Assembly: GCA_964503265.1 (NCBI GenBank)
Contig: CAZCYO010000001.1
Span: 226,064 to 290,063 of the forward strand
Origin: an uncultured Gammaproteobacteria bacterium
GTDB lineage: Bacteria; Patescibacteriota; Microgenomatia; Levybacterales; UBA12049
Direction of reading: 5' to 3'
Length of the DNA stretch: 64,000 nt
Shown here: positions 8,238 through 62,968 of the stretch, piece after piece
Layout: every line of letters begins with the position of its first letter
Numbering within the stretch: the first letter of the stretch is position 1
Notes under the pieces: model-generated
What the model was told of the DNA's origin: nothing
Database searches by the model: none
What the model saw: only the letters and a program-made list of their open reading frames with translations
Position numbers and translations under genes: made by a program

Positions 8238-9389
8238 ATGTGTAGTATAATTTCTGAAGTTTATATGTCACGTGATTTACAGATTAATAGAAAAGAACGA
8301 ATAGCCTTTTTTCATGAGTTACATGTAGGCGGGGCACGAAGAGCGTGTGATGAATTTGCAACTGCGTTAAAAAATAAATACTTTGTCGATTTATACTATG
8401 TTGATGAAGATGCAGATAAGACTTCAACGAATATTTTTGACCGAGTCTACTTTTCTCCCTTTATTCCTAAACTGTGGAAAGGTGGAAACTGGAAAGTTAA
8501 ATTATATAAAGATACAATTGAACTCTATAATCTGTATAGATTACATAAGAAAATTGCAAAAAAAATTAATAATAAAGATTACTCATACGTTTTTATTCAT
8601 GGTTCAAAGTATACTCAAGCCCCGTTTCTTCTTCGTTTCGTAAACCATAAGAAAATTTATTACTGCCAAGAACCATTGCGAATTGCATATGAAGAGTATT
8701 TTGCAATCGATAAAAACCTTAGTTTTCCTAAGAAAGTATATGAATCAACAATTCGGTATGTCAGAAAGATAATTGATAAAAAGAATGCTCTCTCTGCAGA
8801 TATATTGCTTGCTAACTCAACTTTTACTAAAGAAAATATCTCTCATGCATTTGATCGAGAAGCAGTTGTATGTCATATGGGTGTTAAAACTGAAGTCTTT
8901 TATCCTGAGAAGAAGAAAAAAGATATTGATGTCTTATTTATTGGTTCATATGACTTTATCGATGGTTATTCGTTATTAGTTGACTCCCTCCAGGTATTGA
9001 AAGATAAAAAAGTAAAAGTAAAATATATTACTCGAGAAACAGAATGGATTAGTGATGATGCTATACTTCGTGATTATTACAATCGATCTAAATCTGTGAT
9101 AGCTTTTGGATATAAAGAACCTTTTGGCCTTATTCCCCTTGAAGCGATGAGTTGTGGTACACCAGTTATTGCTTTAAATGAGGGTGGATATAAGGACTCA
9201 GTCATTGAGGGAAAGACTGGGTTTCTTGTTCCTAGAGACAAAAAAGTTATTGCTGAGAGAATAGCATATCTCATTTCTCATCCGACTATAGTTCGTTATA
9301 TGGGTAAAAATGCGAGGCAGCAGATACTTAACCATTGGACATGGTCAGCTAGTTCAACTTACTTAGAAAGTCTATTAATACATGAATAG
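8238..9389 (+). CDS. GT4 (GT-B fold) glycosyltransferase.
   Basis: C-terminal EPFGLIPLEAMSCGTPVIALNEGGYKDSVIEGKTGFLV is the canonical GT4/GT1 E-x7-E region. Confidence 0.8.
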   Translation: MCSIISEVYMSRDLQINRKERIAFFHELHVGGARRACDEFATALKNKYFVDLYYVDEDADKTSTNIFDRVYFSPFIPKLWKGGNWKVKLYKDTIELYNLYRLHKKIAKKINNKDYSYVFIHGSKYTQAPFLLRFVNHKKIYYCQEPLRIAYEEYFAIDKNLSFPKKVYESTIRYVRKIIDKKNALSADILLANSTFTKENISHAFDREAVVCHMGVKTEVFYPEKKKKDIDVLFIGSYDFIDGYSLLVDSLQVLKDKKVKVKYITRETEWISDDAILRDYYNRSKSVIAFGYKEPFGLIPLEAMSCGTPVIALNEGGYKDSVIEGKTGFLVPRDKKVIAERIAYLISHPTIVRYMGKNARQQILNHWTWSASSTYLESLLIHE

Positions 9390-20915: not shown

Positions 20916-20957
20916 ATGTGTAGAATAAAGAATTATGAATTAAGAATCAAGTATGTG

Positions 20958-21029
20958 AGCCGAAGGTGGGATTCGGACCCACGACTTGCTCTTTACGAAA
21001 GAGCTACTCTACCCCTGAGTTACTCCGGC
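20958..21029 (-). tRNA. tRNA-Thr (anticodon CGT).
   Basis: Cloverleaf folded by eye: acceptor GCCGGAG/CTTCGGC, D-arm, anticodon stem GCTCT/AGAGC with loop TTCGTAA, T-arm GTGGG-TCCGAAT-CCCAC, discriminator U. Confidence 0.8.
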
Positions 21030-21300
21030 ACAGGTGTTATTTTAGGAGATTTTACACATGGAAGCAATACTCGAGAAAATAATCGTCTCATAGTTTGATT
21101 ATACAAAAATAATTTAGTATACTCTCGTAGTCTTTTAGGAAAGAATCATAATTGCATGATCTCTTTGCTATTAGTGCATTTTTTAGCACATTAATAGTTT
21201 TTGCGAACAAATTATCTACTTGGACGAGGTGATAGGTGAGTAATTCATTACTTTTCTTTCTTCTCGTCCAAGTTGGACGAACACAAAAAAGGAGGAGTCG

Positions 21301-21666
21301 ATGTCTACTATCTTTGCACAATCTGATCTCGATGCTGCAAAACGACGAGCGATAGATCGCTATTTTTTTACACAGCTGGAAAAACAGCTTGCTAGTGCGA
21401 CTACCATACCTCTGGAAATCCGCCTTAGCGGAGCTCGGGTTATCTTTACTGTTTTCGGGGGCAAAGCCCACCGTGAGCAGTACAAGAAGAATTGGGTACT
21501 ACCATTAGGCATTATCGAGCTATTGATTGCTGCGGAAGTGCCGCCGGCGATGCTTATTCACTTCCTGGAGGAGGATTTACTGCTGATTCCAGGTATTGGA
21601 GAGGAGGAGGAGGAACAGATTCTCATTGCTCGTGCCCCGTTTCTCCCGGTATTCACCGGAAGTTGA
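21301..21666 (+). CDS. Hypothetical small protein with a C-terminal helix-hairpin-helix motif (GC-rich islet 1, ORF 1).
   Basis: AAAAGGAGGAG Shine-Dalgarno 7 nt upstream of ATG. GC-rich codon usage. LLLIPGIGEEEEEQILIAR matches the HhH consensus L-P-G-I-G...I. Confidence 0.55.
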   Translation: MSTIFAQSDLDAAKRRAIDRYFFTQLEKQLASATTIPLEIRLSGARVIFTVFGGKAHREQYKKNWVLPLGIIELLIAAEVPPAMLIHFLEEDLLLIPGIGEEEEEQILIARAPFLPVFTGS

Positions 21667-21684
21667 AGGTTCAGGAGGTATACT

Positions 21685-21891
21685 ATGGTGGAAGACGTCC
21701 GATATGACTTGGCAGGTCTCGAAGAGATCTGTCATAGCATCTTCCGAGGTCACAATCAGGTTATTCTTCTGGCTGAAAACTATTCTGGTCGCGAGCTGGA
21801 AGCAGTTATGCGGCGACTCAAGGAGGCTACCGGGAAGAACTATACCTATGAATGGGAGCCCGGAAAGCGCATCGAAGTTCGGTGCACATAG
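21685..21891 (+). CDS. Hypothetical small protein (GC-rich islet 1, ORF 2).
   Basis: AGGAGG SD 8 nt upstream. 68 aa. GC-rich codons. Confidence 0.5.
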   Translation: MVEDVRYDLAGLEEICHSIFRGHNQVILLAENYSGRELEAVMRRLKEATGKNYTYEWEPGKRIEVRCT

Positions 21892-21922
21892 TACTTACAT
21901 GCCGAAAGGCAAGGAGGAGGTC

Positions 21923-22201
21923 ATGGAATTTGAACGTGCGTGTATCGCGTATGGCATGCATTTGATGACATTGTCTATGACTCTGTCACAAATGAAGGAC
22001 ATCACCGAAACACCAGCATTTGACGTATTTCTTCACGCATTGAAGGAGACGTCAACGTCTATGGCGTATGGGTCTCTCACAAAGGAGGAGGTGAGTGCTT
22101 TTAGCGCTTCTCTTGGTATTTTGCTCCAAGTTGGTGGGGCGCAGCTAGCTGAAATCAACTTCCAGAAGATGCTGAAGTCATTGGCCGCATTGCAACAATA
22201 G
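21923..22201 (+). CDS. Hypothetical small protein (GC-rich islet 1, ORF 3).
   Basis: AAGGAGGAGG SD directly upstream of ATG at 21923. The long 201-aa form in the ORF track spans the upstream gene and is unlikely. Confidence 0.5.
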   Translation: MEFERACIAYGMHLMTLSMTLSQMKDITETPAFDVFLHALKETSTSMAYGSLTKEEVSAFSASLGILLQVGGAQLAEINFQKMLKSLAALQQ

Positions 22202-22320
22202 AATAGCAAGAGAATGGCGTTTTTGTGAGAAGAATTATTCACAAATGTATAACGTAGTGTTCAACTGATTGCCATCGCGATTTGCGTGTATGGAGTACCA
22301 GTTGGCACAACACTATACAT

Positions 22321-22349
22321 GTTCTTCTTCACAAGAACGCCTTTTTTAT
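22321..22349 (+). terminator. Candidate intrinsic terminator for the islet 1 operon.
   Basis: GTTCTT-cttcac-AAGAAC hairpin followed by gccTTTTTTaT. Confidence 0.35.
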
Positions 22350-22394
22350 GTCTTTTTTCTCTGAAACTTTGAAACTATGAGGCTCTGAAACTAT

Positions 22395-22823
22395 TTAGGA
22401 GATTGGTGTGGTTCTTCGGTGGCGGTATTTGTTTCCGATTTCTAGTTCCATGATGGCTCGTCTCATGTCGGCTTGGGCGAGGGCGTAATCTCGTTCACTG
22501 ACTCCGTCTTCTTTTTTCTTTATGATTTCTTCTGCTTTCTTTTGTGCTGCGAGTGCTTTTTCTACTTCGATTTCTTCCACTCGTACTGCATAATCTGAGA
22601 GAATAACACACTTACCATCAGTGATTTGAAGAAATCCACCAGTCGCACCAAGTGATTGCTGCTTGCCCTTCATTTTAATAATGAGCTCACCTGGGAGAAC
22701 TTCTGTCATGAGATTAACGTGATGGGGGAGAATTGCGAGCTGACCTTTTGGTGTTTGCAGTAAAAATTCATCGACTTCGTCGGTAAACATTACTTTTTCT
22801 GGGGTGATGATTTCTAGGTGCAT
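22395..22823 (-). CDS. atpC: F0F1 ATP synthase subunit epsilon.
   Basis: Position after beta. 142 aa with an N-terminal beta-sandwich-like sequence (MHLEIITPEKVMF...). Confidence 0.85.
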   Translation of the reverse strand: MHLEIITPEKVMFTDEVDEFLLQTPKGQLAILPHHVNLMTEVLPGELIIKMKGKQQSLGATGGFLQITDGKCVILSDYAVRVEEIEVEKALAAQKKAEEIIKKKEDGVSERDYALAQADMRRAIMELEIGNKYRHRRTTPIS

Positions 22824-27857: not shown

Positions 27858-28825
<968 letters not shown>

Positions 28826-28882
28826 ATTTGAAGCATATGGCTTATGGCACATGGCAAATAGTTATTACTTATTTTGAAAAAC

Positions 28883-28910
28883 TATTAGCTATACGCTATT
28901 AGCTATACGC
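28883..28910. repeat. Perfect 14-bp tandem duplication (TATTAGCTATACGC x2) upstream of atpB.
   Basis: Read directly from the sequence. Confidence 0.9.
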
Positions 28911-29023
28911 TAGATTCTATTTTACCTCGTGAGCCTATTTCGAGTCAAGGCGGAAATTGGATGGGCGCTGGCGCCCACCCGTGATAAGTGGTGCGCCAGC
29001 ATGTGTGCACTGGGAATTTGTTG

Positions 29024-29557
29024 TTAGTTGCAGTTTATCTTCAGCAGTGGTGACAGTGTGTGTTGACCTCCGAGAATGAACCCTTCGAGTATGTTCCCTT
29101 CGTGCTCGGCGAGAGTGCACGTCTGCGTGATGAGCGTGCGGGCATCATGGATATCGCTCAGAAGCACGTTTGCGGTAAATGTTTCTCCCCGCCTAAGCCC
29201 AAGGGCTCGTTTCCGGAATTCATCGCGACTGAGAGTAGAGTATTCCTCGACGGTCTCCTCCTTCGCACGTATGTTTTCCACGCTTGTCCAGTTGACATGG
29301 TGCAGAGCTTTGAAAACGCCGTTGAGCATGATCGAGAAGACGAGTGTGAACTGTTCAGGGGTACTGTCGGCGCAGAGTTCCAGAGTATCCATCAACTTGT
29401 GGATGAGGAAGTGGACCTGTTCGTAGATCTCCGCGTAGGTGAGATGAACGCCCGTGAGCGTTTGTGATGCTTCCATCAGTTTCTTGATGTGCATCTCGGT
29501 TAGCTTCGGGGTAGACATAATACCTTCTGCAGTGACAGTAACTTCGATCTCATCCAT
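29024..29557 (-). CDS. Hypothetical protein (GC-rich islet 2, ORF 2).
   Basis: AAAGGAG SD upstream of ATG. 177 aa. GC-rich codon usage (GAG, CTG, GTC) unlike neighbouring genes. Confidence 0.5.
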   Translation of the reverse strand: MDEIEVTVTAEGIMSTPKLTEMHIKKLMEASQTLTGVHLTYAEIYEQVHFLIHKLMDTLELCADSTPEQFTLVFSIMLNGVFKALHHVNWTSVENIRAKEETVEEYSTLSRDEFRKRALGLRRGETFTANVLLSDIHDARTLITQTCTLAEHEGNILEGFILGGQHTLSPLLKINCN

Positions 29558-29646
29558 GAACAGACTCCTTTCGTTGGGGAGATATCATGACAGAGAGGAA
29601 GGCGGTCCTCTCATTGAGTGCCGGTAACCTACCGGCAGGATGGACC

Positions 29647-30042
29647 TCAAGTTGCAGTCTCATTTTCCTCGCCACGAATGACGAGGTCAATGGGTTGATC
29701 ATTGAAAACGATGAGCGTAGGTATATCGCTCTTTTCGTCTTCAGAATCATCAGGGCTTGTTTCCAGAACGAGTCGTGGCTGAGTAGACAGGACGATGTCA
29801 GATTTCATGCAGACTTCTACGACCTGTCCTAGCTCATCACTGCTATATACAATGATGAAGACAAGAAGCGAAGAATTCTCAAGCTTAATCCAGCCGTGAT
29901 TATCTATTTGCTCGAGAAGTTCGTCGATCGATTCACTGGATGCACCAGGAATAATCGAGATATCGAGCACATAGATTAACGGTTTTAGCTCGAGAAAAAA
30001 ATCACTAGGTGCGTCAGGTATATTCAGCATCGGAACCTCCAC
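29647..30042 (-). CDS. Hypothetical protein (GC-rich islet 2, ORF 1).
   Basis: GGAGGTTCCG SD upstream of ATG. 131 aa, acidic. Confidence 0.5.
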   Translation of the reverse strand: MEVPMLNIPDAPSDFFLELKPLIYVLDISIIPGASSESIDELLEQIDNHGWIKLENSSLLVFIIVYSSDELGQVVEVCMKSDIVLSTQPRLVLETSPDDSEDEKSDIPTLIVFNDQPIDLVIRGEENETAT

Positions 30043-30273
30043 AGTACGCTAATTGTCTATGTACCTTCCGCCCAAGGCAAAGACACGAGATGGAGAAGTA
30101 CTTCTCGACCTGGTGACTGTGCCTTAGGCGTTATAACAACAAATTTTAATGTGCGAAAAAATGATGCTTTCTCAAGATACATACGCAAATACTATGCTCT
30201 TTTGAAAGCAGGGGGATTATACTAAAAATAGAGCACGAGAACAATTATAGGACTGTATACTATATATACTATA

Positions 30274-48121: not shown

Positions 48122-48409
48122 ATGATTTCAGATGTAACATTTGCACCAGGCGATATTGTTAAAGTTCACCAGAAAATCCAGGAAGGGGATAAAACTCGTA
48201 TCCAAATTTTTCAAGGAACTGTACTTGGTATGAAAGGACGAGGAATTAATCGTTCTTTTGAAGTACAGAAAATGGTAGGACAAATTTCAGTTGAAAGAAT
48301 TTGGCCTATATCTTCACCTAACATCGAAAAGGTTGAAGTCGTAGGACATCAAAAACGTCGCGTTCGTCGAGCAAAACTTAACCACATGCGAATTGCAAAA
48401 ACCTCCTAA
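48122..48409 (+). CDS. rplS: 50S ribosomal protein L19.
   Basis: GDIVKVHQKIQEGDKTRIQIFQGTVL...VERIWPISSP..EKVEVV...VRRAKL matches the L19 profile. Confidence 0.85.
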   Translation: MISDVTFAPGDIVKVHQKIQEGDKTRIQIFQGTVLGMKGRGINRSFEVQKMVGQISVERIWPISSPNIEKVEVVGHQKRRVRRAKLNHMRIAKTS

Positions 48410-50415: not shown

Positions 50416-52413
50416 TTATTTATTCTCTAGCTCCTTAATCTTATCCCTTATTTGTAATGCACTTTCGAAATCTAAATGCTCTGCGGCTAATTTCATTTCT
50501 TTTCGCAATCGACTAATAACATCTTTTCGCTCATCTGGAAGAAGTACCTCTTTTGTTCCGAGTTCTACCATAAAATCGATTGATCGCTGTTCACCTTTTT
50601 GTTCTTTTTCCTCGACGAGCCGTGCACGAATCGATTTTTCAATTCCAACCGGGGTAATGCCATGTTTCTTATTGTAGGCTGTCTGAACTTCTCGTCGGCG
50701 TTCGACTTCATCTATCGCGTATTTCATCGAGTCAGTGATTCGGTCTGCATACATGATGACCTGTGAGTCGACGTGCCTGGCTGCGCGTCCCATGGTTTGG
50801 ATAAGAGACGTACGAGAACGTAAAAATCCTTCTTTATCTGCATCGAGAATCACGACGAGGGATACTTCTGGAAGATCGAGTCCTTCACGAAGAAGATTGA
50901 TTCCGACTAATACATCATAATCACCCACGCGAAGCTTATCGAGGACATCTTGGCGTTCAAGTGTAATAATATCTGAGTGAAGATATGCGACTTTTACTTT
51001 TTTATCGTCGAGATAGCTGGTCAGTTCTTCAGCCATACGCTTGGTGAGAGTTGTAACGAGTACACGTTCTTTTTTAACTACTCGTTTTTCAATTTCGAGC
51101 AAGAGATCTGGAATTTGTCCTGCTGATGGTTTGATCGTAATGACTGGATCGACGAGTCCTGTTGGACGGATAAGCTGTTCGGCGACATTTTCTGGACCAC
51201 TCAGGGACACTTCAAATTCATTTGGGGTTGCTGATACGAATACTTTGCGGTTTACCTTTCTCATAAATTCATCAAAGCGAAGTGGGCGATTATCTAGTGC
51301 TGAGGGAAGTCTGAATCCATAATCGATGAGTGTCCGTTTTCGAGCTTGGTCTCCGTTATACATTCCTCTGATTTGAGGAAGTGTTATATGAGATTCGTCG
51401 ATGATAAGTAGCCAATCATTTTTTGCAGCTGCTTTAAAGTATTCAAGAAGTGTATATGGTGGATCGCCAGGCTTACGGTCTTCGAAGTAAAATGAATAAT
51501 TTTCAATTCCGTTTACATATCCAACTTCTTGCATCATTTCAAGGTCAAATTGTGTTCGTTGGGCAAGGCGCTGAGCTTCAAGAAGTTTGTTCTCGCTTCG
51601 AAGCTCTGCCACACGTTTGTCGAGATCAGCTTTAATTCGAGCGAACGCATCATTACGTGTCGAGGGGTCTGTCATGTAATGTTTCGCTGGGTAAATCACA
51701 GTTTTCGGAAGAGCTTTCGTGATTTCACCAGATACAGGATTAAATTCAGACATTTTGGTAATAAATCCTTCATTTGTTTCAATACGGATCCCTATATCCA
51801 TGTAGGCTGGGAAGAGGTCAATAACGCCTCCACGAATGCGAAATGATCCTCGTTTAAATTCATAGTCATTTCGTAGATACTGAAGATCAGTGAGGCGAAC
51901 GAGGATATCTCGCATCTCGACTTTAAGCCCTTCCATCAGTTCGAGGACGAACTTTCCATATTCAAGAGGTGAACCTAAGTTATAAATACATGACACTGAT
52001 GCGACGACGATAGCGTCTTTACGTGTTAAGAGGTTAGTAGTGGCCGAGAGACGAAGTTTGTCTATCTCATCGTTAATTTCAGCTTCTTTCTCTATATATG
52101 TATCGGTAGTAGGCATGTATGCTTCTGGCTGATAGTAATCATAGTAAGAAACGAAGTAAGAGACAGCATTTTCAGGGAAGAAATCTCTGAACTCCTGGTA
52201 GAGTTGCCCTGCAAGTGTTTTATTATGCGAGATGATAAGAGTAGGTTTTTGAATTTGCTGGATGACATTTGCCATGGTAAACGTTTTACCACTTCCTGTA
52301 ACACCGAGAAGCACTTGGTTTTGTTCATCTTTTTTAAGTCCTGAGACGAGTTTCGCAATAGCATCAGGCTGATCACCCATAGGTTTGAAATCTGATTTAA
52401 GTTTAAAATCCAT
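50416..52413 (-). CDS. uvrB: Excinuclease ABC subunit B.
   Basis: LLGVTGSGKTFT Walker A, helicase motifs, C-terminal UVR domain. 665 aa. Confidence 0.95.
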   Translation of the reverse strand: MDFKLKSDFKPMGDQPDAIAKLVSGLKKDEQNQVLLGVTGSGKTFTMANVIQQIQKPTLIISHNKTLAGQLYQEFRDFFPENAVSYFVSYYDYYQPEAYMPTTDTYIEKEAEINDEIDKLRLSATTNLLTRKDAIVVASVSCIYNLGSPLEYGKFVLELMEGLKVEMRDILVRLTDLQYLRNDYEFKRGSFRIRGGVIDLFPAYMDIGIRIETNEGFITKMSEFNPVSGEITKALPKTVIYPAKHYMTDPSTRNDAFARIKADLDKRVAELRSENKLLEAQRLAQRTQFDLEMMQEVGYVNGIENYSFYFEDRKPGDPPYTLLEYFKAAAKNDWLLIIDESHITLPQIRGMYNGDQARKRTLIDYGFRLPSALDNRPLRFDEFMRKVNRKVFVSATPNEFEVSLSGPENVAEQLIRPTGLVDPVITIKPSAGQIPDLLLEIEKRVVKKERVLVTTLTKRMAEELTSYLDDKKVKVAYLHSDIITLERQDVLDKLRVGDYDVLVGINLLREGLDLPEVSLVVILDADKEGFLRSRTSLIQTMGRAARHVDSQVIMYADRITDSMKYAIDEVERRREVQTAYNKKHGITPVGIEKSIRARLVEEKEQKGEQRSIDFMVELGTKEVLLPDERKDVISRLRKEMKLAAEHLDFESALQIRDKIKELENK

Positions 52414-53193: not shown

Positions 53194-53459
53194 TTAGCTT
53201 ATTGTCATTGCGAGAAGCCAAGCGACGAAGCAATCTCTTCTCCTGTTATTCTGGAAAGCACCGACTTTTCCAGAATCCTATATCAAAATTAACCCCATAG
53301 TTCTATTTTTCCTTATCTTTTGTTATAATTCAGGCGTACATTTACATTGTGAGATATCACACATGGTCGGCTTTTTGTTCATTCACGAAGTGAATAAGAA
53401 GCTTGCCATGTGGCAGCCAAGTTGTACTACAATTTGCATTACTACGGTTGGAGAAAAAG

Positions 53460-53762
53460 ATGGAAAACATGTTCGGAGGAAAAGTTGTCTATCGACCGGA
53501 GTTCATGCCCGAAGATGGGAAGTACATGCTGATCCTCTTTACGGTAGAAGAAATCAATGTGCCTGCTCATGGTGAAACTGCCGAAAAGCAGTTGGTCGTA
53601 CCTACTCATCAGATTGAAGCCTATGTCGATCTCGAGAGCATTTCTCAACGTGTCGAAGGTCTGATGAAACGTGAGCCAGGTCGAACTGACTTCATTATCC
53701 TGCATGCCGACCAGCTCCAGGTCGTGACGAATTATACCCTCACGGGCTGTAGTAGGACATAA
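53460..53762 (+). CDS. Hypothetical small protein (GC-rich islet 3, ORF 1).
   Basis: GGAG 7 nt upstream of ATG. 100 aa. GC-rich codons. Confidence 0.45.
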   Translation: MENMFGGKVVYRPEFMPEDGKYMLILFTVEEINVPAHGETAEKQLVVPTHQIEAYVDLESISQRVEGLMKREPGRTDFIILHADQLQVVTNYTLTGCSRT

Positions 53763-53818
53763 TCACTGCATACAGTCAATTCTTGCACCATATAGGTGCT
53801 GAACTTAGGGGGGTCTCT

Positions 53819-54037
53819 ATGGACGAGAAGGATGTCCTGCGGATCAAGAATCGGCACTCTCGGCAGTTGAGGCAGAGGCCGAAAGTTAACGGTGTTGGCA
53901 CGTGTGTGATTAACGGAGTGCACTGTGTGCACGTCTGGCTGACAAGTGAAGCTGAACCGTCTGACAACCTGCCGGCGACCCTTGAGGGTGTTCCGGTGGT
54001 CTACGAAGTTCTCGGCGAGATCATTCCTCGGAACTAG
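53819..54037 (+). CDS. Hypothetical small protein (GC-rich islet 3, ORF 2).
   Basis: AGGGGGG upstream of ATG. 72 aa. GC-rich codons. Confidence 0.45.
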   Translation: MDEKDVLRIKNRHSRQLRQRPKVNGVGTCVINGVHCVHVWLTSEAEPSDNLPATLEGVPVVYEVLGEIIPRN

Positions 54038-54220
54038 AAGCTGTATGATTTTCTCATTCACCAATCACAGTAACTATACATAAGCACCAGAAGGGTGCGG
54101 AAGTAAAAGGAGGATTTGGCCTGTCACTCGCTGATAGGACGCAAAAACCCTTGGTCTTCCGACCACACCCCAAGGTGCTTTTTGCGTTTTATACAGCTGT
54201 TTTGTGCTAAAATACGCACA

Positions 54221-54943
54221 ATGGGAATTTTATTTGTGGTGGGGACACCGATTGGGAACTTACAAGACATTACGATTCGTGCGATTCATACACTTTTTCA
54301 TGTAGATACGATTGCATGTGAAGATACGAGACGTACTGGGAGTCTTCTGCAGTCCCTCATGCCTGTGTATGAAACGCTCATGCATGTGGAAGATAGAGCA
54401 CTTAAACGTCCGAAACTCCTTTCATATTTCGAACAGAACGAGCTTCGGCGTATTCCAGAGATCCTATCCCTACTTCATAATGATGAACATGTCGCACTCG
54501 TATCAGATGCAGGCATGCCAGCGATTTCAGACCCGGGATATAAACTCATTCGCGAATGTATTAGAGCCGGGGTAAAGATAGAGGTAATTCCTGGGCCTTC
54601 AAGTACGCTTATGGCCTTGGTTGGATCAGGGATGCCGACTGATAAATGGACATTTGTCGGTTATCCTCCACATAAATCAGGACATCGAAAATCACTGTTT
54701 GAAAGTGTTAAAAAAGCAAATGAATTTATTAAATCCACGATTATAATGTTTGAAGCGCCTCATAAAATTATTAAAACACTTGAAGAGATGCAGATGGTAT
54801 TTGGAGATATCGAAGTAGTACTTGCGAGGGAGCTGACGAAAATCCATGAAGAATCACGACATTTCAGAATCTCAGAAGCTCTCATTCATTTCTCCAAAAC
54901 CAACCCTAAAGGAGAATACGTGGTAGTATTTTCATTGAGTTAA
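54221..54943 (+). CDS. rsmI: 16S rRNA 2'-O-ribose C1402 methyltransferase RsmI (tetrapyrrole methylase fold).
   Basis: ILFVVGTPIGNLQDIT..A...L...D.IACEDTRRT. Confidence 0.85.
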   Translation: MGILFVVGTPIGNLQDITIRAIHTLFHVDTIACEDTRRTGSLLQSLMPVYETLMHVEDRALKRPKLLSYFEQNELRRIPEILSLLHNDEHVALVSDAGMPAISDPGYKLIRECIRAGVKIEVIPGPSSTLMALVGSGMPTDKWTFVGYPPHKSGHRKSLFESVKKANEFIKSTIIMFEAPHKIIKTLEEMQMVFGDIEVVLARELTKIHEESRHFRISEALIHFSKTNPKGEYVVVFSLS

Positions 54944-56274
54944 ATCAAGAAAAGACCCAATACACTTGTGACGATAATACACATGACACTCAGTCCAAAT
55001 TTTACTGTAAATTCTTTGGTTCCTAGAAAGTAACTATATGCTGTTTTACCGATTAGATTTACTGCATTAGCTAGAATAAAGGCGATAGCGGCTAGTTGGT
55101 ATGAAACGGTAGTTCCTGAAAGTTGGGCGGTGTTAATCATGACTGCATCTAGCCCTGCGAGCGCTCCAATTCCAGTGGTTACTAAAAAACCACTGCTGCC
55201 AAAATACTTCAATGCTACTTTCGAAAGAATGCTTATCACAAGAAATATTCCTGCAAACTTTATTGCAGGTGACAAGGCAAAAATCTCAGTCTCTTTTTCA
55301 TGTGACTTGTCTGGCTTGAGTTTCTTTTTACTTGATTGCATGGTGAAAAATATTGTGACGGCCAGACTGCTCACGATCATTAATCCAAGAATCGGGAGGA
55401 GTCTGATTACAAAAGTGATATTAAGCGGGGAAAGAAGAATCGCAATCTGAAAAAAGCTGACCAAATTCGCGATCAGTGCAGCTGAAAGGAGATGATTTAC
55501 ATCTTTTGACGTCTTACTTTGCAGTGCAAGAGACTGAGTGGTCGCAGTACTTGAGATAAAGCCTCCAGCGATACTTGCTAGTATCCATCCTTTTTGGCGT
55601 CCAAGTGTTCGCTCGAGAATGTATCCGATAAGGTCGACTCCGGTAATGAGTGCGACTATCAGCCACAATTTAAATGGGTTAACTATCTCAAGCTGAAAAA
55701 GACCGTTTACTGGCACCTGTGCGTTATTAAAGAAATTGGTTAGTCCGGGGATATCCTTTAGTGCATACGATGTATTTGGTAGAAAGGGAAGGATAACCAG
55801 GGCGATGATGGCATAACTAATAAAAGCGTTAAGTTCTGCGCGCTTTATACCTCCGATCACCTGTTTAATAGCTCTTTTTTGAGAGAGAGTGAGTGCCAGA
55901 ACTGCAGTCATAGCTATTGTTACTTGTACTGGAATAATCGTGGTTGCGATCAGTATGCCGATGATAAAACAGAAAAGCATGGCTAATTCAGTAGTAATTC
56001 CTGTATCTTTTGTTTGGTTTGTATCAAGGACATAAAACACGATAAGAAGAACGAGAAACGCTGCGCTAATGAGGATAGAGAATCCAATAAAATTGGTATA
56101 GAGTATCCCTGCAACTGCTCCTAACGTCGCGATAAGCGCGAAGCTGCGCAATCCCAGAACCGAAACAATCTTACCATTAATGATGTTTTTTTCATTAATT
56201 TCTCGTTCTATCCCGATCGCTGCACCAAGAATAAATGAAATAAGTAGAGTAAACGAAATAGTTATGCTATCCAT
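54940..56274 (-). CDS. MgtC/SapB-family membrane protein with extended C-terminal multi-TM domain (DUF4010-like).
   Basis: N-terminal GAAIGIEREINEK matches the MgtC G-x-E-R-E motif. About 12 TM helices overall. Confidence 0.6.
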   Translation of the reverse strand: MDSITISFTLLISFILGAAIGIEREINEKNIINGKIVSVLGLRSFALIATLGAVAGILYTNFIGFSILISAAFLVLLIVFYVLDTNQTKDTGITTELAMLFCFIIGILIATTIIPVQVTIAMTAVLALTLSQKRAIKQVIGGIKRAELNAFISYAIIALVILPFLPNTSYALKDIPGLTNFFNNAQVPVNGLFQLEIVNPFKLWLIVALITGVDLIGYILERTLGRQKGWILASIAGGFISSTATTQSLALQSKTSKDVNHLLSAALIANLVSFFQIAILLSPLNITFVIRLLPILGLMIVSSLAVTIFFTMQSSKKKLKPDKSHEKETEIFALSPAIKFAGIFLVISILSKVALKYFGSSGFLVTTGIGALAGLDAVMINTAQLSGTTVSYQLAAIAFILANAVNLIGKTAYSYFLGTKEFTVKFGLSVMCIIVTSVLGLFLI

Positions 56275-57244: not shown

Positions 57245-57352
57245 AAAAATTGTCATTCCCGCGAAGGCGGGAATCTATTGAAAGTCTGGATCCCCGATCC
57301 CAACTTCGCCAAGGCTTCGCTGGGCGAGGCAGGTCGGGGATGACACAATGAT

Positions 57353-58675: not shown

Positions 58676-60943
58676 CTATTTAAGTATTTTCCGTTCAATT
58701 TTAGCAATGTGTTCTCGAACACGAGGAACGACATCTGATGAAACAGAAACACTCGTTACACCCCATTCTAATAATTTTTCAAGAAGTTCTGGATAAAGTG
58801 ATGCAGCCTGCCCACAGACTGAAGAAGTGATATGATTTTTACGCGCAGTCTTAATAGTGTGCTCAAGTGCCCAGAGCATCGCTGGGTTTTGTTCATCATA
58901 AGATCGTGCTACTTCGCTATTATCTCGATCAGTTCCAAGCATAAGCATTGTTAAATCATTTGTCCCCACAGAAACACCATCGATGCCTACTTTTATGAAC
59001 TCATCAAGAAGTACAACGTTTGCTGGGATTTCAACCATCATCCAGAGTCTAAAGAGAGGAGAACGTTGTAACCCTGCATCATTAATGATTTTTTTTACTT
59101 CAATTAATTCTCGAACAGTTCTCACGAATGGAACCATAAGCCAAAGATTTTTAAGATTTTTTTTCTGTCTTACAATTTTAATTGCTTCTAGCTCAAGTGC
59201 GAAAACCTCAGGATCATGAATATATCGAAATGCACCTCGATATCCAAGCATGGGATTTGCTTCGACTGGCTCATATTCGCGACCACCGACGAGTCCTCGA
59301 TATTCATTTGTTTTAAAATCAGATGCTCGATAAATAACAGGGCGAGGATTAAAAGCAGTACAGAATATTTCAATTTGTGATGCTAATTTTTCGATAAATT
59401 CTTGTTTCTTGCCATCTCTAATCATTTTCTTTGGATGAACACCAATTCCAGCCATCATAAATTCAGCTCTCAGTAGTCCAATCCCATCGACATTTTTAGC
59501 GGCCATACTACTTGCTAGTTCTGGCTCAGCAAGATTTATATATACTTTGGTAGCTGTTTTCGTATGAATATTTTCATCGTGTGGGGAGTTCTGATCGTTT
59601 GATAAAAAGGTCGCACCTTTATAGACTTCACCTTTGGATCCGTTGACTGTAACGACCATGCCATTTTTAAGTATCGACAATGCATGTTCTGTCCCGACGA
59701 CAGCTGGAGTTCCAAGTTCTCGTGACACAATGGCAGCATGGGATGTTCGTCCACCCTTTTCAGTGATTATGGCAGCTGCTTTTTTCATCGCAGGAACAAA
59801 GTCCGGGTTGGTCTGTGAAGCAACTAGAATATCTCCTGGCATGAGTGATTCCATATCTCGAATTGAATGAAGTATCTTAACCGGTCCTGAAGCAAGACCA
59901 GGGGAAGCAGGTGAGCCTTGAAGCAGTAGTTCTAATTTTGTTGATGGAGTATGCGTCTCAGCTACCTTTTTATTATGAAGTGTTGTAATCGCACGAGTCT
60001 GGACGACATAAATATGATTTTTTTCAATAGCCCATTCTATGTCTTGTGGAAAATAATAGTGCTTCTCAAGCTTACGACCAAGATCTGCCAGGCCTAATAT
60101 TTCCATTTCTGTTAGTTTTTGTGTTTTTCCTTCTCGAGCAGATAGTTTACTTTCTTTATTCTTTCCGTTAATTCTTTCTAATTTCACATCTTGTGTCGCA
60201 ACGCTCGTTTTTAAAATTGTATTTCTATCTTTTGCAACTTCATAGTGATCTGGTGTTACCTTGCCCCCGACGATGTATTCTCCGAGTCCATAAATCGCTT
60301 CAATAATAATCTTTGATTTATCCTGTAACACAGGATCAACTGTGAACATAATACCTGATTTCTCAGACTCGATCATTGCCTGCACGACAACTGCGATGCC
60401 AACTCTAAAGTGGTCAAATTTTTGTTCATGTCGATAAAAAATTGCCCGTGCGTCAAATAATGATGCCCAGGCATCTTTTATTTTTAGAATCAGGTTGGCT
60501 TCGCCTTTAACATTGAGATATGTTTCTTGTTGGCCAGCAAATGAGGCAGTAGGGAGGTCTTCAGCGGTAGCACTTGAGCGAACTGCAACAAGTGGATCTT
60601 CAAGCACGCCACCTAATGATTTGTAGAAATGAAAAATTTCTTGAATTAGTTCTTCTGAGAGATGTTCATGCGTAATGAGATTTTTTATATGACTTGAGAC
60701 TTGCATGAGAGATTCTGGATGATCGAAGTTAACTGTACGCAAGAGGTGATTTATTTTTGTGGTAAGATTATTTTCTTTAAGAAATTGGAAATACGCTTTG
60801 GACGAAACAATAAATCCTGGAGGGACAGGAAAACCAGCTTTCGTCATTTCACCTAAGTTAGCACCTTTGCCACCAACGAGTGAAATATCATCTTTAGTAA
60901 CTTCTTTAAACCAGTAGATCTGATTCGTTCGTTTCGTGGGCAT
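58676..60943 (-). CDS. ppsA: Phosphoenolpyruvate synthase / pyruvate,water dikinase family.
   Basis: N-terminal ATP-grasp (SLVGGKGANLGEM), central phospho-His domain (GGRTSHAAIVSRELGTPAVVG), C-terminal PEP-utilising TIM barrel. Confidence 0.85.
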   Translation of the reverse strand: MPTKRTNQIYWFKEVTKDDISLVGGKGANLGEMTKAGFPVPPGFIVSSKAYFQFLKENNLTTKINHLLRTVNFDHPESLMQVSSHIKNLITHEHLSEELIQEIFHFYKSLGGVLEDPLVAVRSSATAEDLPTASFAGQQETYLNVKGEANLILKIKDAWASLFDARAIFYRHEQKFDHFRVGIAVVVQAMIESEKSGIMFTVDPVLQDKSKIIIEAIYGLGEYIVGGKVTPDHYEVAKDRNTILKTSVATQDVKLERINGKNKESKLSAREGKTQKLTEMEILGLADLGRKLEKHYYFPQDIEWAIEKNHIYVVQTRAITTLHNKKVAETHTPSTKLELLLQGSPASPGLASGPVKILHSIRDMESLMPGDILVASQTNPDFVPAMKKAAAIITEKGGRTSHAAIVSRELGTPAVVGTEHALSILKNGMVVTVNGSKGEVYKGATFLSNDQNSPHDENIHTKTATKVYINLAEPELASSMAAKNVDGIGLLRAEFMMAGIGVHPKKMIRDGKKQEFIEKLASQIEIFCTAFNPRPVIYRASDFKTNEYRGLVGGREYEPVEANPMLGYRGAFRYIHDPEVFALELEAIKIVRQKKNLKNLWLMVPFVRTVRELIEVKKIINDAGLQRSPLFRLWMMVEIPANVVLLDEFIKVGIDGVSVGTNDLTMLMLGTDRDNSEVARSYDEQNPAMLWALEHTIKTARKNHITSSVCGQAASLYPELLEKLLEWGVTSVSVSSDVVPRVREHIAKIERKILK

Positions 60944-61009
60944 TACATCTATTATGTATTAAATGGATAGGATGTATCAAGAGTATTTTAGGGGTTTTTA
61001 AGAATGGTT

Positions 61010-61036
61010 GTACCGGGGATTTGAGATCCCCGGTAC
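61010..61036. terminator. Perfect 11-bp GC-rich hairpin (GTACCGGGGAT-ttgag-ATCCCCGGTAC) between the islet 4 operon end and the ppsA start.
   Basis: Read directly from the sequence. No clear U-tract on either side. Confidence 0.35.
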
Positions 61037-61067
61037 ATCTGATTGCACTGAAATGGCGAGAGTGAGA

Positions 61068-61376
61068 TTAATAGTTGATCTGAATTCCTGAAGCTGTTTC
61101 TATGCTTTTTTTGAAGAGTTTTCCCCGCATCAGCCAATGCTGTTTGTTAGGCATTGCTTTGAACGGGACTGGCTTTTCGAGAGCGATGAAAACGCTAGAA
61201 AGAGAGATGGGCATCAAGTTGTGCGTATATCGGACACGAATCCAGACATTTGGACTCATTCCCGGTAGACGCCATTCTACGAACACGCGAGGTGACAAAT
61301 CTGGAATATTTTCCAGAGTCTCCCAGTCATCGGGTGGATTCTGAAGTAATTCGACAGGAATGTGAATCGTCGGCAT
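61068..61376 (-). CDS. Hypothetical small protein (GC-rich islet 4, ORF 2).
   Basis: AGGAGGTG SD directly upstream of ATG. 102 aa. Confidence 0.5.
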   Translation of the reverse strand: MPTIHIPVELLQNPPDDWETLENIPDLSPRVFVEWRLPGMSPNVWIRVRYTHNLMPISLSSVFIALEKPVPFKAMPNKQHWLMRGKLFKKSIETASGIQINY

Positions 61377-61386
61377 GTGGCACCTC

Positions 61387-61782
61387 CTACAGATGTGTTA
61401 TGACGATATGGTCGATGTGATCCTGCATCGAGATAAGTTGTTCATGACGCATCCGATTCTTGTTTGAGTATACGACACCTTTGATTTGCTTTTTCTTCCA
61501 GACAACCTCGATTCGAGTGATCTTTAGTGGATGGTCACTCGATTGTACATGTGCCCTGACCTGGAAAAGGTTTTTGTGATACTTTTTCCAGGAAATTACA
61601 TAGCCAGCGGCTACTGCATCAGGACAATCTACTATCGTCCAGTCACTGGGTATAGTGCCGAGAAAACGCGAGATCGGAATGGTAATCTTCAGGGGTTTTT
61701 TCAACTGACTCTCCTTTACTTTCTGTTCATCTTGAACAGGACGAGAGAAGGGGAATCTATCCCATCCTTTCTTCCTGTTCAA
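61387..61782 (-). CDS. Hypothetical small protein (GC-rich islet 4, ORF 1). Start uncertain.
   Basis: The ORF-track start is TTG without an SD. An internal AAGGAG-N7-TTG is an alternative start. Confidence 0.4.
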   Translation of the reverse strand: MNRKKGWDRFPFSRPVQDEQKVKESQLKKPLKITIPISRFLGTIPSDWTIVDCPDAVAAGYVISWKKYHKNLFQVRAHVQSSDHPLKITRIEVVWKKKQIKGVVYSNKNRMRHEQLISMQDHIDHIVITHL

Positions 61783-61912
61783 AACTATTCTTATAAAAGT
61801 GCAAAGCTAACTATGATTTCTTGTAGTATAAAACGCAAAAATGTTCTATAAGACGCGAAACTTGTTTTGATTATACTAGATTTAGAGGAAAAGTGTAAGT
61901 TATAGGATGTGA

Positions 61913-62968
61913 CTAGCTTTTTTTGAGTTCGTCTTTAAACCAATCTACCCATGGGTTGGTTGCAGGGTTTTGATCATAGCGAAGTCCTAGATAAAGTGTT
62001 AGATAACTTCCGTAAGCCAGAACTTCTAAGAAATCATCATAAATAGTGGCTCCCGAAGTCATCATCTCGTGTACGACATGATTATTTTGTTTGACGACAT
62101 CAATCGTGAGTTCCATTCTTTTTTTAATTTTAGGCGAGTAATTTGGTGAGTTAAGGACGATAAAATGAAGTGGTGATTCAGTCGGGAATTGAAGTCCTTC
62201 CATTAAGTGATGATTTAAATCTGGTACGAGATAGAAAGCTGAGAACGCTTTACTTGTTTCGTTAAACTGATTTCTAAAGATTTGACCGTTACCTGATAAA
62301 TGTTCAGCTGCGAAAATGACGGGAATTTTATTCACGAATGTTTCTGAATCCTGCATCGCTCGTGCTTTAATATTAGGAAGGTTTTCTTTGAGTCTCGTGA
62401 CAGCATCACGAATTTCACGTTCTTCGACATCTATGATACCTGTCTTATTAAGAAGTCCGATAAGACCAAGGATGGTATATCCATTTCCAAGTCGTGGAAC
62501 ACCAGCTGGATTTAATTTTCCGTCAAAGATATATGCAGGAATAGAGTTTGTTTTCGCAAATTCTGCCAACTGACCACCTTTGGTGAGAATAACCATCTTC
62601 GCACTTTTATCTTTCGCTTCCTGTGCACATGACAAAACTTCTTCAGTTGTTCCAGAATAACTAGTCAGAACCACGAGGGTGTTTTCATTAACATACGAGG
62701 GAAGGTGATAATCAGAAATTACTTCAGTTGGATATGGCATTTCTGAACCTTGAAGAGCTTTAATAACAAGTGCACCATAGACAGATGCTCCCATACCGCA
62801 GAAGACGATATTTTGAATATTTCCCAGGTCAGTCGGAAGATCAAGCGCATTCACTTGCTGCCAAGCTGCTTCCATCTGCTCAGCCATCATTTCAGTTGAG
62901 GCTACAGTATCCTGTGGATCGATTTTTTTAATTGCTTCTAAGTCAGTTAAATTTTGCATATATTTCAA
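61913..62968 (-). CDS. pgi: Bifunctional phosphoglucose/phosphomannose isomerase (SIS domain, archaeal-type PGI/PMI).
   Basis: SIS motif FCGMGASVYGAL, about 350 aa, two SIS halves. Confidence 0.75.
   Translation of the reverse strand: MKYMQNLTDLEAIKKIDPQDTVASTEMMAEQMEAAWQQVNALDLPTDLGNIQNIVFCGMGASVYGALVIKALQGSEMPYPTEVISDYHLPSYVNENTLVVLTSYSGTTEEVLSCAQEAKDKSAKMVILTKGGQLAEFAKTNSIPAYIFDGKLNPAGVPRLGNGYTILGLIGLLNKTGIIDVEEREIRDAVTRLKENLPNIKARAMQDSETFVNKIPVIFAAEHLSGNGQIFRNQFNETSKAFSAFYLVPDLNHHLMEGLQFPTESPLHFIVLNSPNYSPKIKKRMELTIDVVKQNNHVVHEMMTSGATIYDDFLEVLAYGSYLTLYLGLRYDQNPATNPWVDWFKDELKKS

Follow-up and report, generated by a model that had tools for sequence, protein, structure and literature searches.

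What fills the gap between the tRNA-Thr gene and the ATP synthase genes of an uncultured bacterium assigned to the Patescibacteriota by GTDB, and why do its contents change from one relative to the next? The DNA in question, which we call the window, is a stretch of 64,000 nucleotides (nt) of contig CAZCYO010000001.1 (assembly GCA_964503265.1, positions 226,064 to 290,063 of the forward strand), and the gap holds a GC-rich segment, islet 1, with three small open reading frames (ORF1 to ORF3) that encode orphan proteins. We consider it probable that islet 1 is a moron-like accessory expression cassette lodged in a flexible-genome hotspot between atpC and tRNA-Thr, with a conserved frame and with cargo that is exchanged by recombination. 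The same locus carries different, unrelated gene sets in the window, in a sister strain (V) and in a related lineage (R) and is nearly empty in a more distant genome (L002), with the flanking gene order kept. Alignments of these loci show that the putative frame, a promoter-leader of about 200 nt and a 3' hairpin of about 130 nt, persists while the cargo turns over. The genes of the locus are as follows (aa, amino acids).

20957-21029, minus strand: tRNA-Thr (anticodon CGT), found by ARAGORN and Rfam; the left neighbor, transcribed away from islet 1.
21030-22394: islet 1, lying between tRNA-Thr(CGT) and the atpC stop codon, with three co-directional ORFs.
21301-21666, plus strand: ORF1, 121 aa, an orphan; Shine-Dalgarno site AGGAGG at 21290-95.
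21685-21891, plus strand: ORF2, 68 aa, an orphan; Shine-Dalgarno site AGGAGG at 21673-78.
21923-22201, plus strand: ORF3, 92 aa, an orphan and the replaceable third gene; Shine-Dalgarno sequence AAGGAGGAGG at 21911-20 (AGGAGG at 21912/21915).
22395-22823, minus strand: atpC, the ATP synthase epsilon subunit, identified by Pfam; the right neighbor, convergent with islet 1.

The evidence for cargo turnover comes from three comparisons. Lineage R, which we reached through the AtpD cluster, is represented by contigs L007 to L015 (also L016) and is present in many JGI and Logan samples, with contigs of up to 1.5 Mb. Its gene order is that of the window, AtpC and AtpD are 89.5% and 94% identical to their window counterparts, and tRNA-Thr(CGT) matches at 72 of 73 positions; 44 to 63% of 4-fold degenerate sites differ between the two, which is near saturation. 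The atpC-tRNA gap of lineage R is occupied by a different GC-rich islet (2,008 nt, GC 0.51 to 0.54) on the opposite strand, with five ORFs (104, 42, 135, 41, and 74 aa), four of them led by Shine-Dalgarno sites and none significantly similar to ORF1, ORF2, or ORF3.

Sister strain V was reached through the 90%-identity clusters of ORF1 and ORF2 and consists of contigs L005 (SRR22387770) and L006 (SRR22387748), which are in agreement over 772 nt. Its leader, ORF1, and ORF2 are about 95% identical to those of the window, and only the third gene is replaced: from 21923 (the start codon) to about 22195, V has an unrelated gene of 143 aa instead, whose product ends in two hydrophobic helices near the C terminus and has no Pfam match. 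From the base of the 3' hairpin onward, the V and window sequences are alike again. An 18-residue patch (ELIxRLN) shared by this variant third gene and the 74-aa ORF of lineage R is too weak to call. In a preliminary description of the locus, made from the window sequence, it was asked whether the trio of genes travels together; ORF1 and ORF2 do stay together in V, but the third gene does not stay with them.

In the distant genome L002, the AtpC protein of which is 58% identical to that of the window, the gap between atpC and tRNA-Thr(CGT) measures just 62 bp, in the order atpG-atpC-62 bp-tRNA-Thr(CGT)-Big-domain gene-O-antigen-ligase-like (Wzy) gene. The preliminary description had proposed looking for an empty version of the gap in a relative, and L002 supplies one. 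Read across these genomes, the locus is one slot with cargo replacement at two time-scales. The description had also taken islet 1 for a horizontally acquired mini-operon, but islet 1 is not the product of a single, simple insertion: its leader and tail are older than the divergence of the window and R lineages, and in R they enclose quite different genes.

The cargo differs from its host in composition. GC content is 0.481 for positions 21251-22200 against 0.379 for the whole window, and GC at third codon positions (GC3) is 0.46, 0.54, and 0.52 in ORF1, ORF2, and ORF3 against 0.25 to 0.31 in host genes. The correlation of relative synonymous codon usage (RSCU) between islet 1 and the host is 0.19 to 0.32, whereas for equally long pieces of host sequence it averages 0.71 and does not fall below 0.49. 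The GC and codon profile thus bears out the initial impression of a GC-rich segment with foreign codon usage. The same holds for the three Shine-Dalgarno-led ORFs of 121, 68, and 92 aa in a host whose genes mostly lack such sites. AGGAGG stands 2 to 6 nt before the ATG of each ORF, and 10 of the 17 plus-strand AGGAGG sites of the window fall within 21290-22086. Among 41 host genes, a Shine-Dalgarno core of even 4 nt precedes 5 and is missing from the other 36.

In about one-third of host genes, a TANNNT box resembling a -10 element starts instead 10 to 16 nt upstream of the start codon (background, 15%), and many host mRNAs may therefore be leaderless or have very short leaders. Examples of such host upstream regions are at 48122, 48442, 50416-52413, and 56349. 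Nevertheless, the host ribosome is evidently able to use Shine-Dalgarno sites, since a 68-aa ORF at 27858-28064 preceded by AGGAGG is atpE, the ATP synthase c subunit, by its position in the atp operon; the syntenic 68-aa gene of lineage R matches PF00137 (ATP-synt_C). Taken over the window and R lineages, the variable gene pool has about 50% GC and strong Shine-Dalgarno sites, while the core genome has 33 to 40% GC and almost no such sites.

Are the genes real? The window comes from a metagenome-assembled genome and the three proteins have no relatives, which would fit an artefact, either an assembly chimera or noncoding DNA with chance ORFs. This explanation is effectively refuted. An independent Logan assembly of run SRR12487046 has the same atp-islet junction, and two other runs (SRR22387770 and SRR22387748) carry the tRNA-leader-ORF1-ORF2 arrangement; since the former joins the islet to the atp operon and strain V joins it to the tRNA gene, a chimera is excluded. 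The three ORFs follow one another along the segment, the Shine-Dalgarno site of each is correctly spaced, and the islet has no Rfam match of its own. GC content at codon positions 1, 2, and 3 of islet 1 is 0.58, 0.38, and 0.50, so that GC1 exceeds GC2 in the normal coding pattern. Between the window and V, ORF1 differs by 16 substitutions, distributed 4/1/11 over codon positions 1/2/3, with a ratio of nonsynonymous to synonymous differences per site (pN/pS) of 0.25. ORF2 differs by 9 substitutions (pN/pS 0.58), the two genes combined give a pN/pS of 0.34, and the noncoding leader differs at 15 of 271 positions. At least ORF1 is, on this substitution pattern, evidently under purifying selection as a protein, and the proposal of a real Shine-Dalgarno-led operon holds up. 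A structured noncoding RNA in place of genes was ruled out by the Rfam results together with the codon-position bias. For the third gene, the public NCBI annotation gives a protein of 117 aa (P0006, 21848-22201), which starts at an upstream ATG overlapping ORF2 and lacks a ribosome-binding site. We prefer the 92-aa form, whose start at 21923 follows AAGGAGGAGG.

The proteins themselves match no family, as had been thought from inspection. Among 5.8 billion protein clusters, ORF1, ORF2, and ORF3 each retrieved only themselves, and an exhaustive HMMER search of 1.84 billion representatives with ORF1 returned only ORF1. Similarly, none of the three has a family match in Pfam, PHROGs, PADLOC, or NCBIfam, including the toxin-antitoxin and defense models of PADLOC, Pfam, and NCBIfam, and none has a match in Protein Data Bank sequence searches, in tblastn searches against phages and plasmids, or in scans of viral contigs and JGI metagenome contigs. 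The suggestion that ORF1 ends in a helix-hairpin-helix (HhH) motif, and hence binds DNA or RNA, was a resemblance seen by eye and is not upheld: the stretch has no Pfam match at an E value of ≤1 and no Protein Data Bank match at an E value of ≤10. The AlphaFold2 model of ORF1 alone has a predicted local distance difference test score (pLDDT) of 46 and is unusable, with values of 30 to 40 over the HhH-like stretch. ORF2 yields a better model (pLDDT 70) that matches just promiscuous, generic small alpha/beta domains. Two candidate assignments for ORF2 were set aside: its polyubiquitin matches are artefacts of summing over repeats, with no single significant stretch, and for the L7Ae/L30e family there is no profile match above the curated cutoff.

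If the genes turn over, what stays? The following features make up the proposed frame and its borders.

21039-21067, minus strand: probable promoter of tRNA-Thr, TTGCTT-17-TAAAAT, read from the sequence; host sequence.
21095-21123, plus strand: predicted promoter of islet 1, TTGATT-17-TATACT, found by a consensus scan, within the conserved block CTCATAGTTTGATTAT...TAGTATACTC.
21186-21194, plus strand: conserved leader box GCACATTAA, with the family consensus GCACWTTWA, from an alignment of five leaders.
21213-21279, plus strand: leader hairpin of about 68 nt, with the core stem 21219-28 / 21263-72.
About 22204-22352, plus strand: long 3' hairpin and U-tract, with the core GGCG...CGCC at 22215-22342.
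22359-22392, plus strand: three direct CTYTGAAACT repeats, between the 3' hairpin and the atpC stop codon.

A leader of 260 bp had originally been ascribed to the operon. Most of it stands, but its first 40 or so nt hold the tRNA's own promoter, the TTGCTT-17-TAAAAT of which is kept in lineage R and the -10 box of which is kept in L002. The predicted islet promoter is kept in V and in module 1 of lineage R, and it recurs in R module 2 and before two other islets of the window, islets 2 and 5, which are described below. Downstream lies the leader hairpin. As first noted, it contains a 10-bp inverted repeat (CTTGGACGAG/CTCGTCCAAG at 21219-28 and 21263-72), and TTGGACGA occurs three times within 21220-21280, out of 7 copies in the whole window where 1.9 would be expected. 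The third copy of the TTGGACGA arm (21273-80), directly 3' of the hairpin, permits an alternative short hairpin in all versions of the leader.

The leader hairpin is 81% identical between the window and lineage R, and promoter, leader hairpin, and tail hairpin together range from 72 to 81% despite the near-saturated synonymous sites. RNAalifold applied to the window, V, and R leaders gives 30 base pairs, of which 4 have changes on both sides and several have one-sided changes compatible with G-U pairing; compensatory examples are an apical T-A that becomes U-G and then C-G and, at the base, TT/AA that becomes CC/GG. A covariance model of the leader hairpin scores 103 bits in the sense orientation and 35 bits in the antisense orientation; since the sense score is far higher, an RNA structure in the transcript is favored. 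In Rfam, both at the gathering threshold and at an E value of ≤1, only tRNAs match, and neither the leader nor the tail hairpin does.

At the other end, the preliminary description had placed a terminator hairpin with a T-tract at 22321-22349. A hairpin does exist there, but that segment is just the 3' half of the much longer one at 22204-22352. The complete structure folds at -59.3 kcal/mol with a z score of -8.1 on the plus strand (-4.5 on the minus strand). Over about 150 nt, it is 78% identical to its R counterpart; the outer stem has hardly changed, and although the interior has diverged, the R version still folds (-62.6 kcal/mol, z = -8.7). This hairpin of about 130 nt is a probable terminator and insulator between islet 1 and the convergent atpC, the simplest role for it given its U-tract and its position between convergent genes. 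A search for a dispersed family of tail hairpins found no other copies. A protein may bind the CTYTGAAACT motif that is repeated beyond it; the leader of R module 2 contains this motif as a palindrome, TCTGAAATGGTTTCAGA (L007, about 9115-9135).

How would such a cassette work? In the reading that we prefer, an exchangeable cassette in a conserved frame, transcription would start near 21130 and end at the long 3' hairpin, and ORF1, ORF2, and ORF3 are probably co-transcribed. At the RNA level, the leader hairpin would serve as a common regulatory or stabilizing element for whichever gene follows it. DNA taken up from related strains would recombine with the locus in its conserved leader, Shine-Dalgarno region, and tail and so exchange the cargo, and the ultimate donor pool would have a GC content of about 50% and use Shine-Dalgarno sites. 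Small, fast-turnover, strain-specific proteins most often serve conflict functions, and by this analogy our guess is that the cargo could act in phage defense or counter-defense, as toxin or immunity proteins, or in host interaction.

Islet 1 has counterparts elsewhere in the window, as follows.

28853-30273, minus strand: islet 2, two orphan ORFs of 127 and 177 aa (GC3 0.43 and 0.63), between dnaE and atpB (1,421 nt).
53403-54064: islet 3, two small GC-rich orphans of 100 and 72 aa, between lexA and rsmI.
60944-61912, minus strand: islet 5, two orphan ORFs between pgi and ppsA, with a leader hairpin at 61706-61788.

All of these sites vary between lineages as well. Islet 2, which has Shine-Dalgarno sites and a 62-nt palindrome in its leader, is missing from lineage R, where the gap measures 143 nt (L007 1394-1536). 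The site of islet 3 holds in R (L016 6978-8951) a Shine-Dalgarno-led gene for the potassium transporter kup, with a GC content of 0.53 and a GC3 of 0.60. The site of islet 5, upstream of ppsA, has two other GC-rich orphans in R, of 108 and 78 aa (L016 12-587). The first ORF of islet 5 in the window probably starts at the TTG near 61702, after AAAGGAG, and not at the TTG at 61782 inside the hairpin. A fourth candidate, islet 4 (57257-57352), had been counted as a gene islet as well, but it turns out to be the spacer that separates gpmA from eno, 96 nt long, GC-rich, and with two hairpins, and the corresponding gap in lineage R measures 3 nt (L016 4264-4268).

What links these loci is the leader. 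The covariance model of the leader hairpin has one further site in the window, at 61706-61788 on the minus strand (30.8 bits, E = 4.5e-5), which is the leader of islet 5. We also built a leave-out nhmmer profile from the islet 1 leaders of the window and R only and searched 117,596 bp on both strands (about 235 kb). Besides its training sequences and reverse-strand matches, this profile finds only the leader of R module 2 (E = 1e-6), islet 5 (E = 2e-3), and islet 2 (E = 2.5e-3). The leaders of islets 1, 2, and 5 and of lineage R share a layout: a -10 box (TAGTATAMT), a spacer of about 60 nt, the GCACWTTWA box, a long hairpin whose arm occurs in three copies, an A-rich spacer, a Shine-Dalgarno site, and the start codon. 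BLAST searches for repeated DNA in the flanks of islet 1 returned only one 18-nt match, to the islet 2 leader, so that the family is seen by profile and covariance searches alone. Islet 3 does not match the leader family. A match of the leader-hairpin pattern in viral contig L018 was discarded as chance, as it lies inside a coding region of a phage contig with 65% GC. The idea of a dispersed family of mini-operons is therefore half right: islets 1, 2, and 5 share a homologous promoter-leader of about 200 nt, but a protein family common to the islets was looked for and rejected, the islet proteins being unrelated to one another. We know of no earlier description of a conserved, structured leader family of this kind, placed in front of foreign genes that are unrelated to one another.

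A leader family at several loci could also belong to a native regulon, and this alternative has to be weighed here. It holds that the islets are vertically inherited host genes, with a leader that is cis-regulatory for stress or host contact and with fast-evolving effectors whose odd composition follows from expression needs. The family occurs at at least three loci in the window genome and in two R modules, leader and tail are kept between lineages, ORF1 is under purifying selection, and the host can use Shine-Dalgarno sites, as atpE (27858-28064) indicates; all of this would fit. However, the nonhomologous cargo of the window, V, and R, the empty site of L002, and the absence of islet 2 from R speak for replacement and not for divergence, and a GC3 shift of 0.2 to 0.3 would not arise in place. 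Further, kup of lineage R, an ordinary transporter, has the same foreign signature at one of these sites. We regard a native regulon as quite improbable.

The same family admits a more ambitious reading, in which the promoter-leader, with or without the 3' hairpin, would be an undescribed platform for gene capture and expression: a structured leader in multiple copies at several sites between housekeeping genes, under whose common RNA-level control unrelated foreign genes are inserted and exchanged, or else a new cis-regulatory RNA of a mobile accessory regulon. Such a platform would resemble an integron in function while having no recognizable integrase. Its cargo so far may consist of orphans plus, at one variable site of lineage R, the kup gene of foreign composition. 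We offer this version tentatively and think it rather unlikely.

The borders of islet 1 raise a further possibility, as a perfect direct repeat marks both of them.

21041-21051 and 22394-22404, plus strand: 11-nt perfect direct repeat TTTAGGAGATT, the right copy of which overlaps the atpC stop codon.

The pair could be an attachment (att) core or a target duplication, and islet 1 would then be the remnant of a site-specifically integrated element, a small genomic island or satellite with an 11-bp core by tRNA-Thr, whose integrase was later lost and whose leader and tail are its backbone. TTTAGGAGATT brackets islet 1 exactly and has just two exact copies in 64 kb, and the empirical chance of a pair at both borders is about 1e-3. 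The islet adjoins a tRNA gene and is foreign in composition, a 10-nt inverted repeat (I8) lies near both of its ends, and a leader module at several loci is what would be expected of a mobile backbone. Against this, there is no integrase, transposase, or other mobility gene in or beside islet 1. The islet sits on the 5' side of the tRNA gene, and integrases that target tRNA genes normally use the 3' side. TTTAGGAGATT does not abut the inverted repeats, and the borders of lineage R have only a 10/13 likeness to it, which speaks against both an att core and a target duplication. The left copy is the tRNA -10 region, conserved even in the empty-site genome L002. An element remnant is therefore unlikely in our view. 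A transposon with terminal inverted repeats and a target-site duplication was rejected outright, because these repeats are not adjacent to each other and lineage R has not kept them. Islet 5 is likewise bracketed by an 11-nt perfect direct repeat, TCTTTAAACCA, at 60903-60913 and 61932-61942; as a mobile border it is probably a coincidence, both copies being coding (WFK(E) in ppsA and WFK(D) at the C terminus of pgi).

The gene-precise swap of the third gene between the window and V, which ends at the base of the hairpin, invites one more explanation: integron-like capture, with the leader and tail hairpins as attI- and attC-like single-strand sites and a recombinase, encoded elsewhere, that would insert and excise promoterless cassettes behind a fixed promoter. 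The promoter and leader indeed stay in place, the cargo behind them can be exchanged, and a long imperfect palindrome closes it off; in V, a stray, gene-less Shine-Dalgarno sequence stands just before the hairpin. Yet the neighborhood has no integrase, a single hairpin ends the whole operon where each gene should have its own, and no hairpin marks the left boundary of the third-gene swap. The 3' arm reads GTTCTTC, without the attC core GTTRRRY, and the G-U pairs favor the sense strand, which is what an RNA element should show. Homologous recombination in conserved flanks explains the boundaries more simply, and we judge integron-like capture to be very improbable.

With these alternatives weighed, an exchangeable accessory cassette remains the explanation that we favor, although several points count against it. 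The promoter, terminator, and operon structure are predictions from sequence, and ORF1, ORF2, and ORF3 are without an assignable function or a confident fold. No donor of the cargo was found, and the case for horizontal acquisition is made from composition and from presence and absence among relatives. Strain V is represented by short Logan contigs, of about 1.1 kb. The paralogous leaders are just 42 to 56% identical and AT-rich, and in the leave-out searches islets 2 and 5 reach only modest E values (1e-4 to 2.5e-3). Finally, the independent versions of the locus are only three (window, V, and R), so that the covariation counts are small and kinship can mimic structural conservation.

Other parts of the window vary as well. 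Positions 1-20200 have a GC content of about 0.32 and a GC3 of 0.25, compared with about 0.40 and 0.31 for the core at 22400-64000. This part looks like a cell-surface polysaccharide gene cluster, judging from the adjacent Wzy gene and from the synteny of the GT87 and Wzy genes in R, and its composition would be typical of the replaceable clusters of that type; at least the Wzy gene is common to L002 and R, and the GT87 gene is also present in R. Near islet 3, the MgtC/DUF4010 gene of the window (54940-56274) is replaced in R by an 81-aa ORF. By pyk, lineage R carries at L016 13451-14543 a gene for a PIN-domain protein (GC 0.30) and a 65-aa partner (GC 0.25), adjoining a NERD/UPF0102 gene. These very AT-rich genes stand apart from the GC-rich islets and make up a second kind of accessory DNA.

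Why would this matter beyond one locus? Small-genome uncultured bacteria are rich in orphan genes, the origin and turnover of which are poorly understood. At this site, orphan-gene turnover is visible at single-gene resolution, with three gene sets in three close lineages and an empty site in a fourth. The conservation of the promoter-leader and of the hairpin suggests that incoming genes are provided with ready-made expression signals, either by the cell or by a mobile element. Such genes would need these signals because ribosome-binding sites are scarcely used by the host's own genes. Should the leader family turn out to be widespread, it would be a practical marker for a flexible, probably conflict-related gene pool and a candidate new regulatory RNA.

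Several known systems come close. Like type II toxin-antitoxin modules and small anti-phage operons, islet 1 is a compact operon of small proteins, variable between strains, foreign in composition, and placed in a hotspot; unlike them, it matches no Pfam, NCBIfam, PHROG, or PADLOC model, so that membership is unsupported. With integron cassettes it shares a fixed upstream promoter, exchangeable small genes (often orphans in integrons), and a long imperfect palindrome at the end. In integrons, the attC cores are RYYYAAC and GTTRRRY, with one attC per cassette. Islet 1, in contrast, is without IntI (in its immediate neighborhood) and without attC cores, has one hairpin per operon, and gives each gene a strong Shine-Dalgarno site, and the related loci are dispersed and do not form an array.

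The likeness is closer to the additive and replacement flexible genomic islands at tRNA-linked hotspots (PMC4898812; compare the tycheposons of Prochlorococcus, doi 10.1101/2020.12.28.424599), where, as at islet 1, a tRNA-adjacent site holds unrelated cassettes across strains and species while the core gene order is kept. Islet 1 differs in being very small (1.3 to 2 kb), in lacking an integrase and partial-tRNA repeats, in lying on the 5' side of the tRNA gene, and in having all-orphan cargo framed by a structured leader and a 130-nt hairpin. There is no recombinase gene at the locus, and its sole repeat is the 11-nt one, which is not derived from the tRNA.

Phage morons, which are independent accessory transcription units (PMC3594210), provide the final comparison. 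Islet 1 does not lie in a prophage: its neighbors are atpC, tRNA-Thr, a Big-domain gene, and dnaE, with no phage matches. It has three genes where a moron has one, its promoter-leader and terminator are kept while the genes between them are exchanged, and its leader exists in multiple copies in the chromosome. Strictly taken, then, islet 1 is neither a moron, nor a tRNA-linked island, nor an integron cassette. In the manner of a moron it would have a promoter and a terminator of its own, both predicted, the one from a consensus that is kept in V and R and the other from the hairpin with its U-tract. Like a moron it is extra DNA relative to its relatives, with a GC content unlike that of its neighbors and with small genes of the accessory type.

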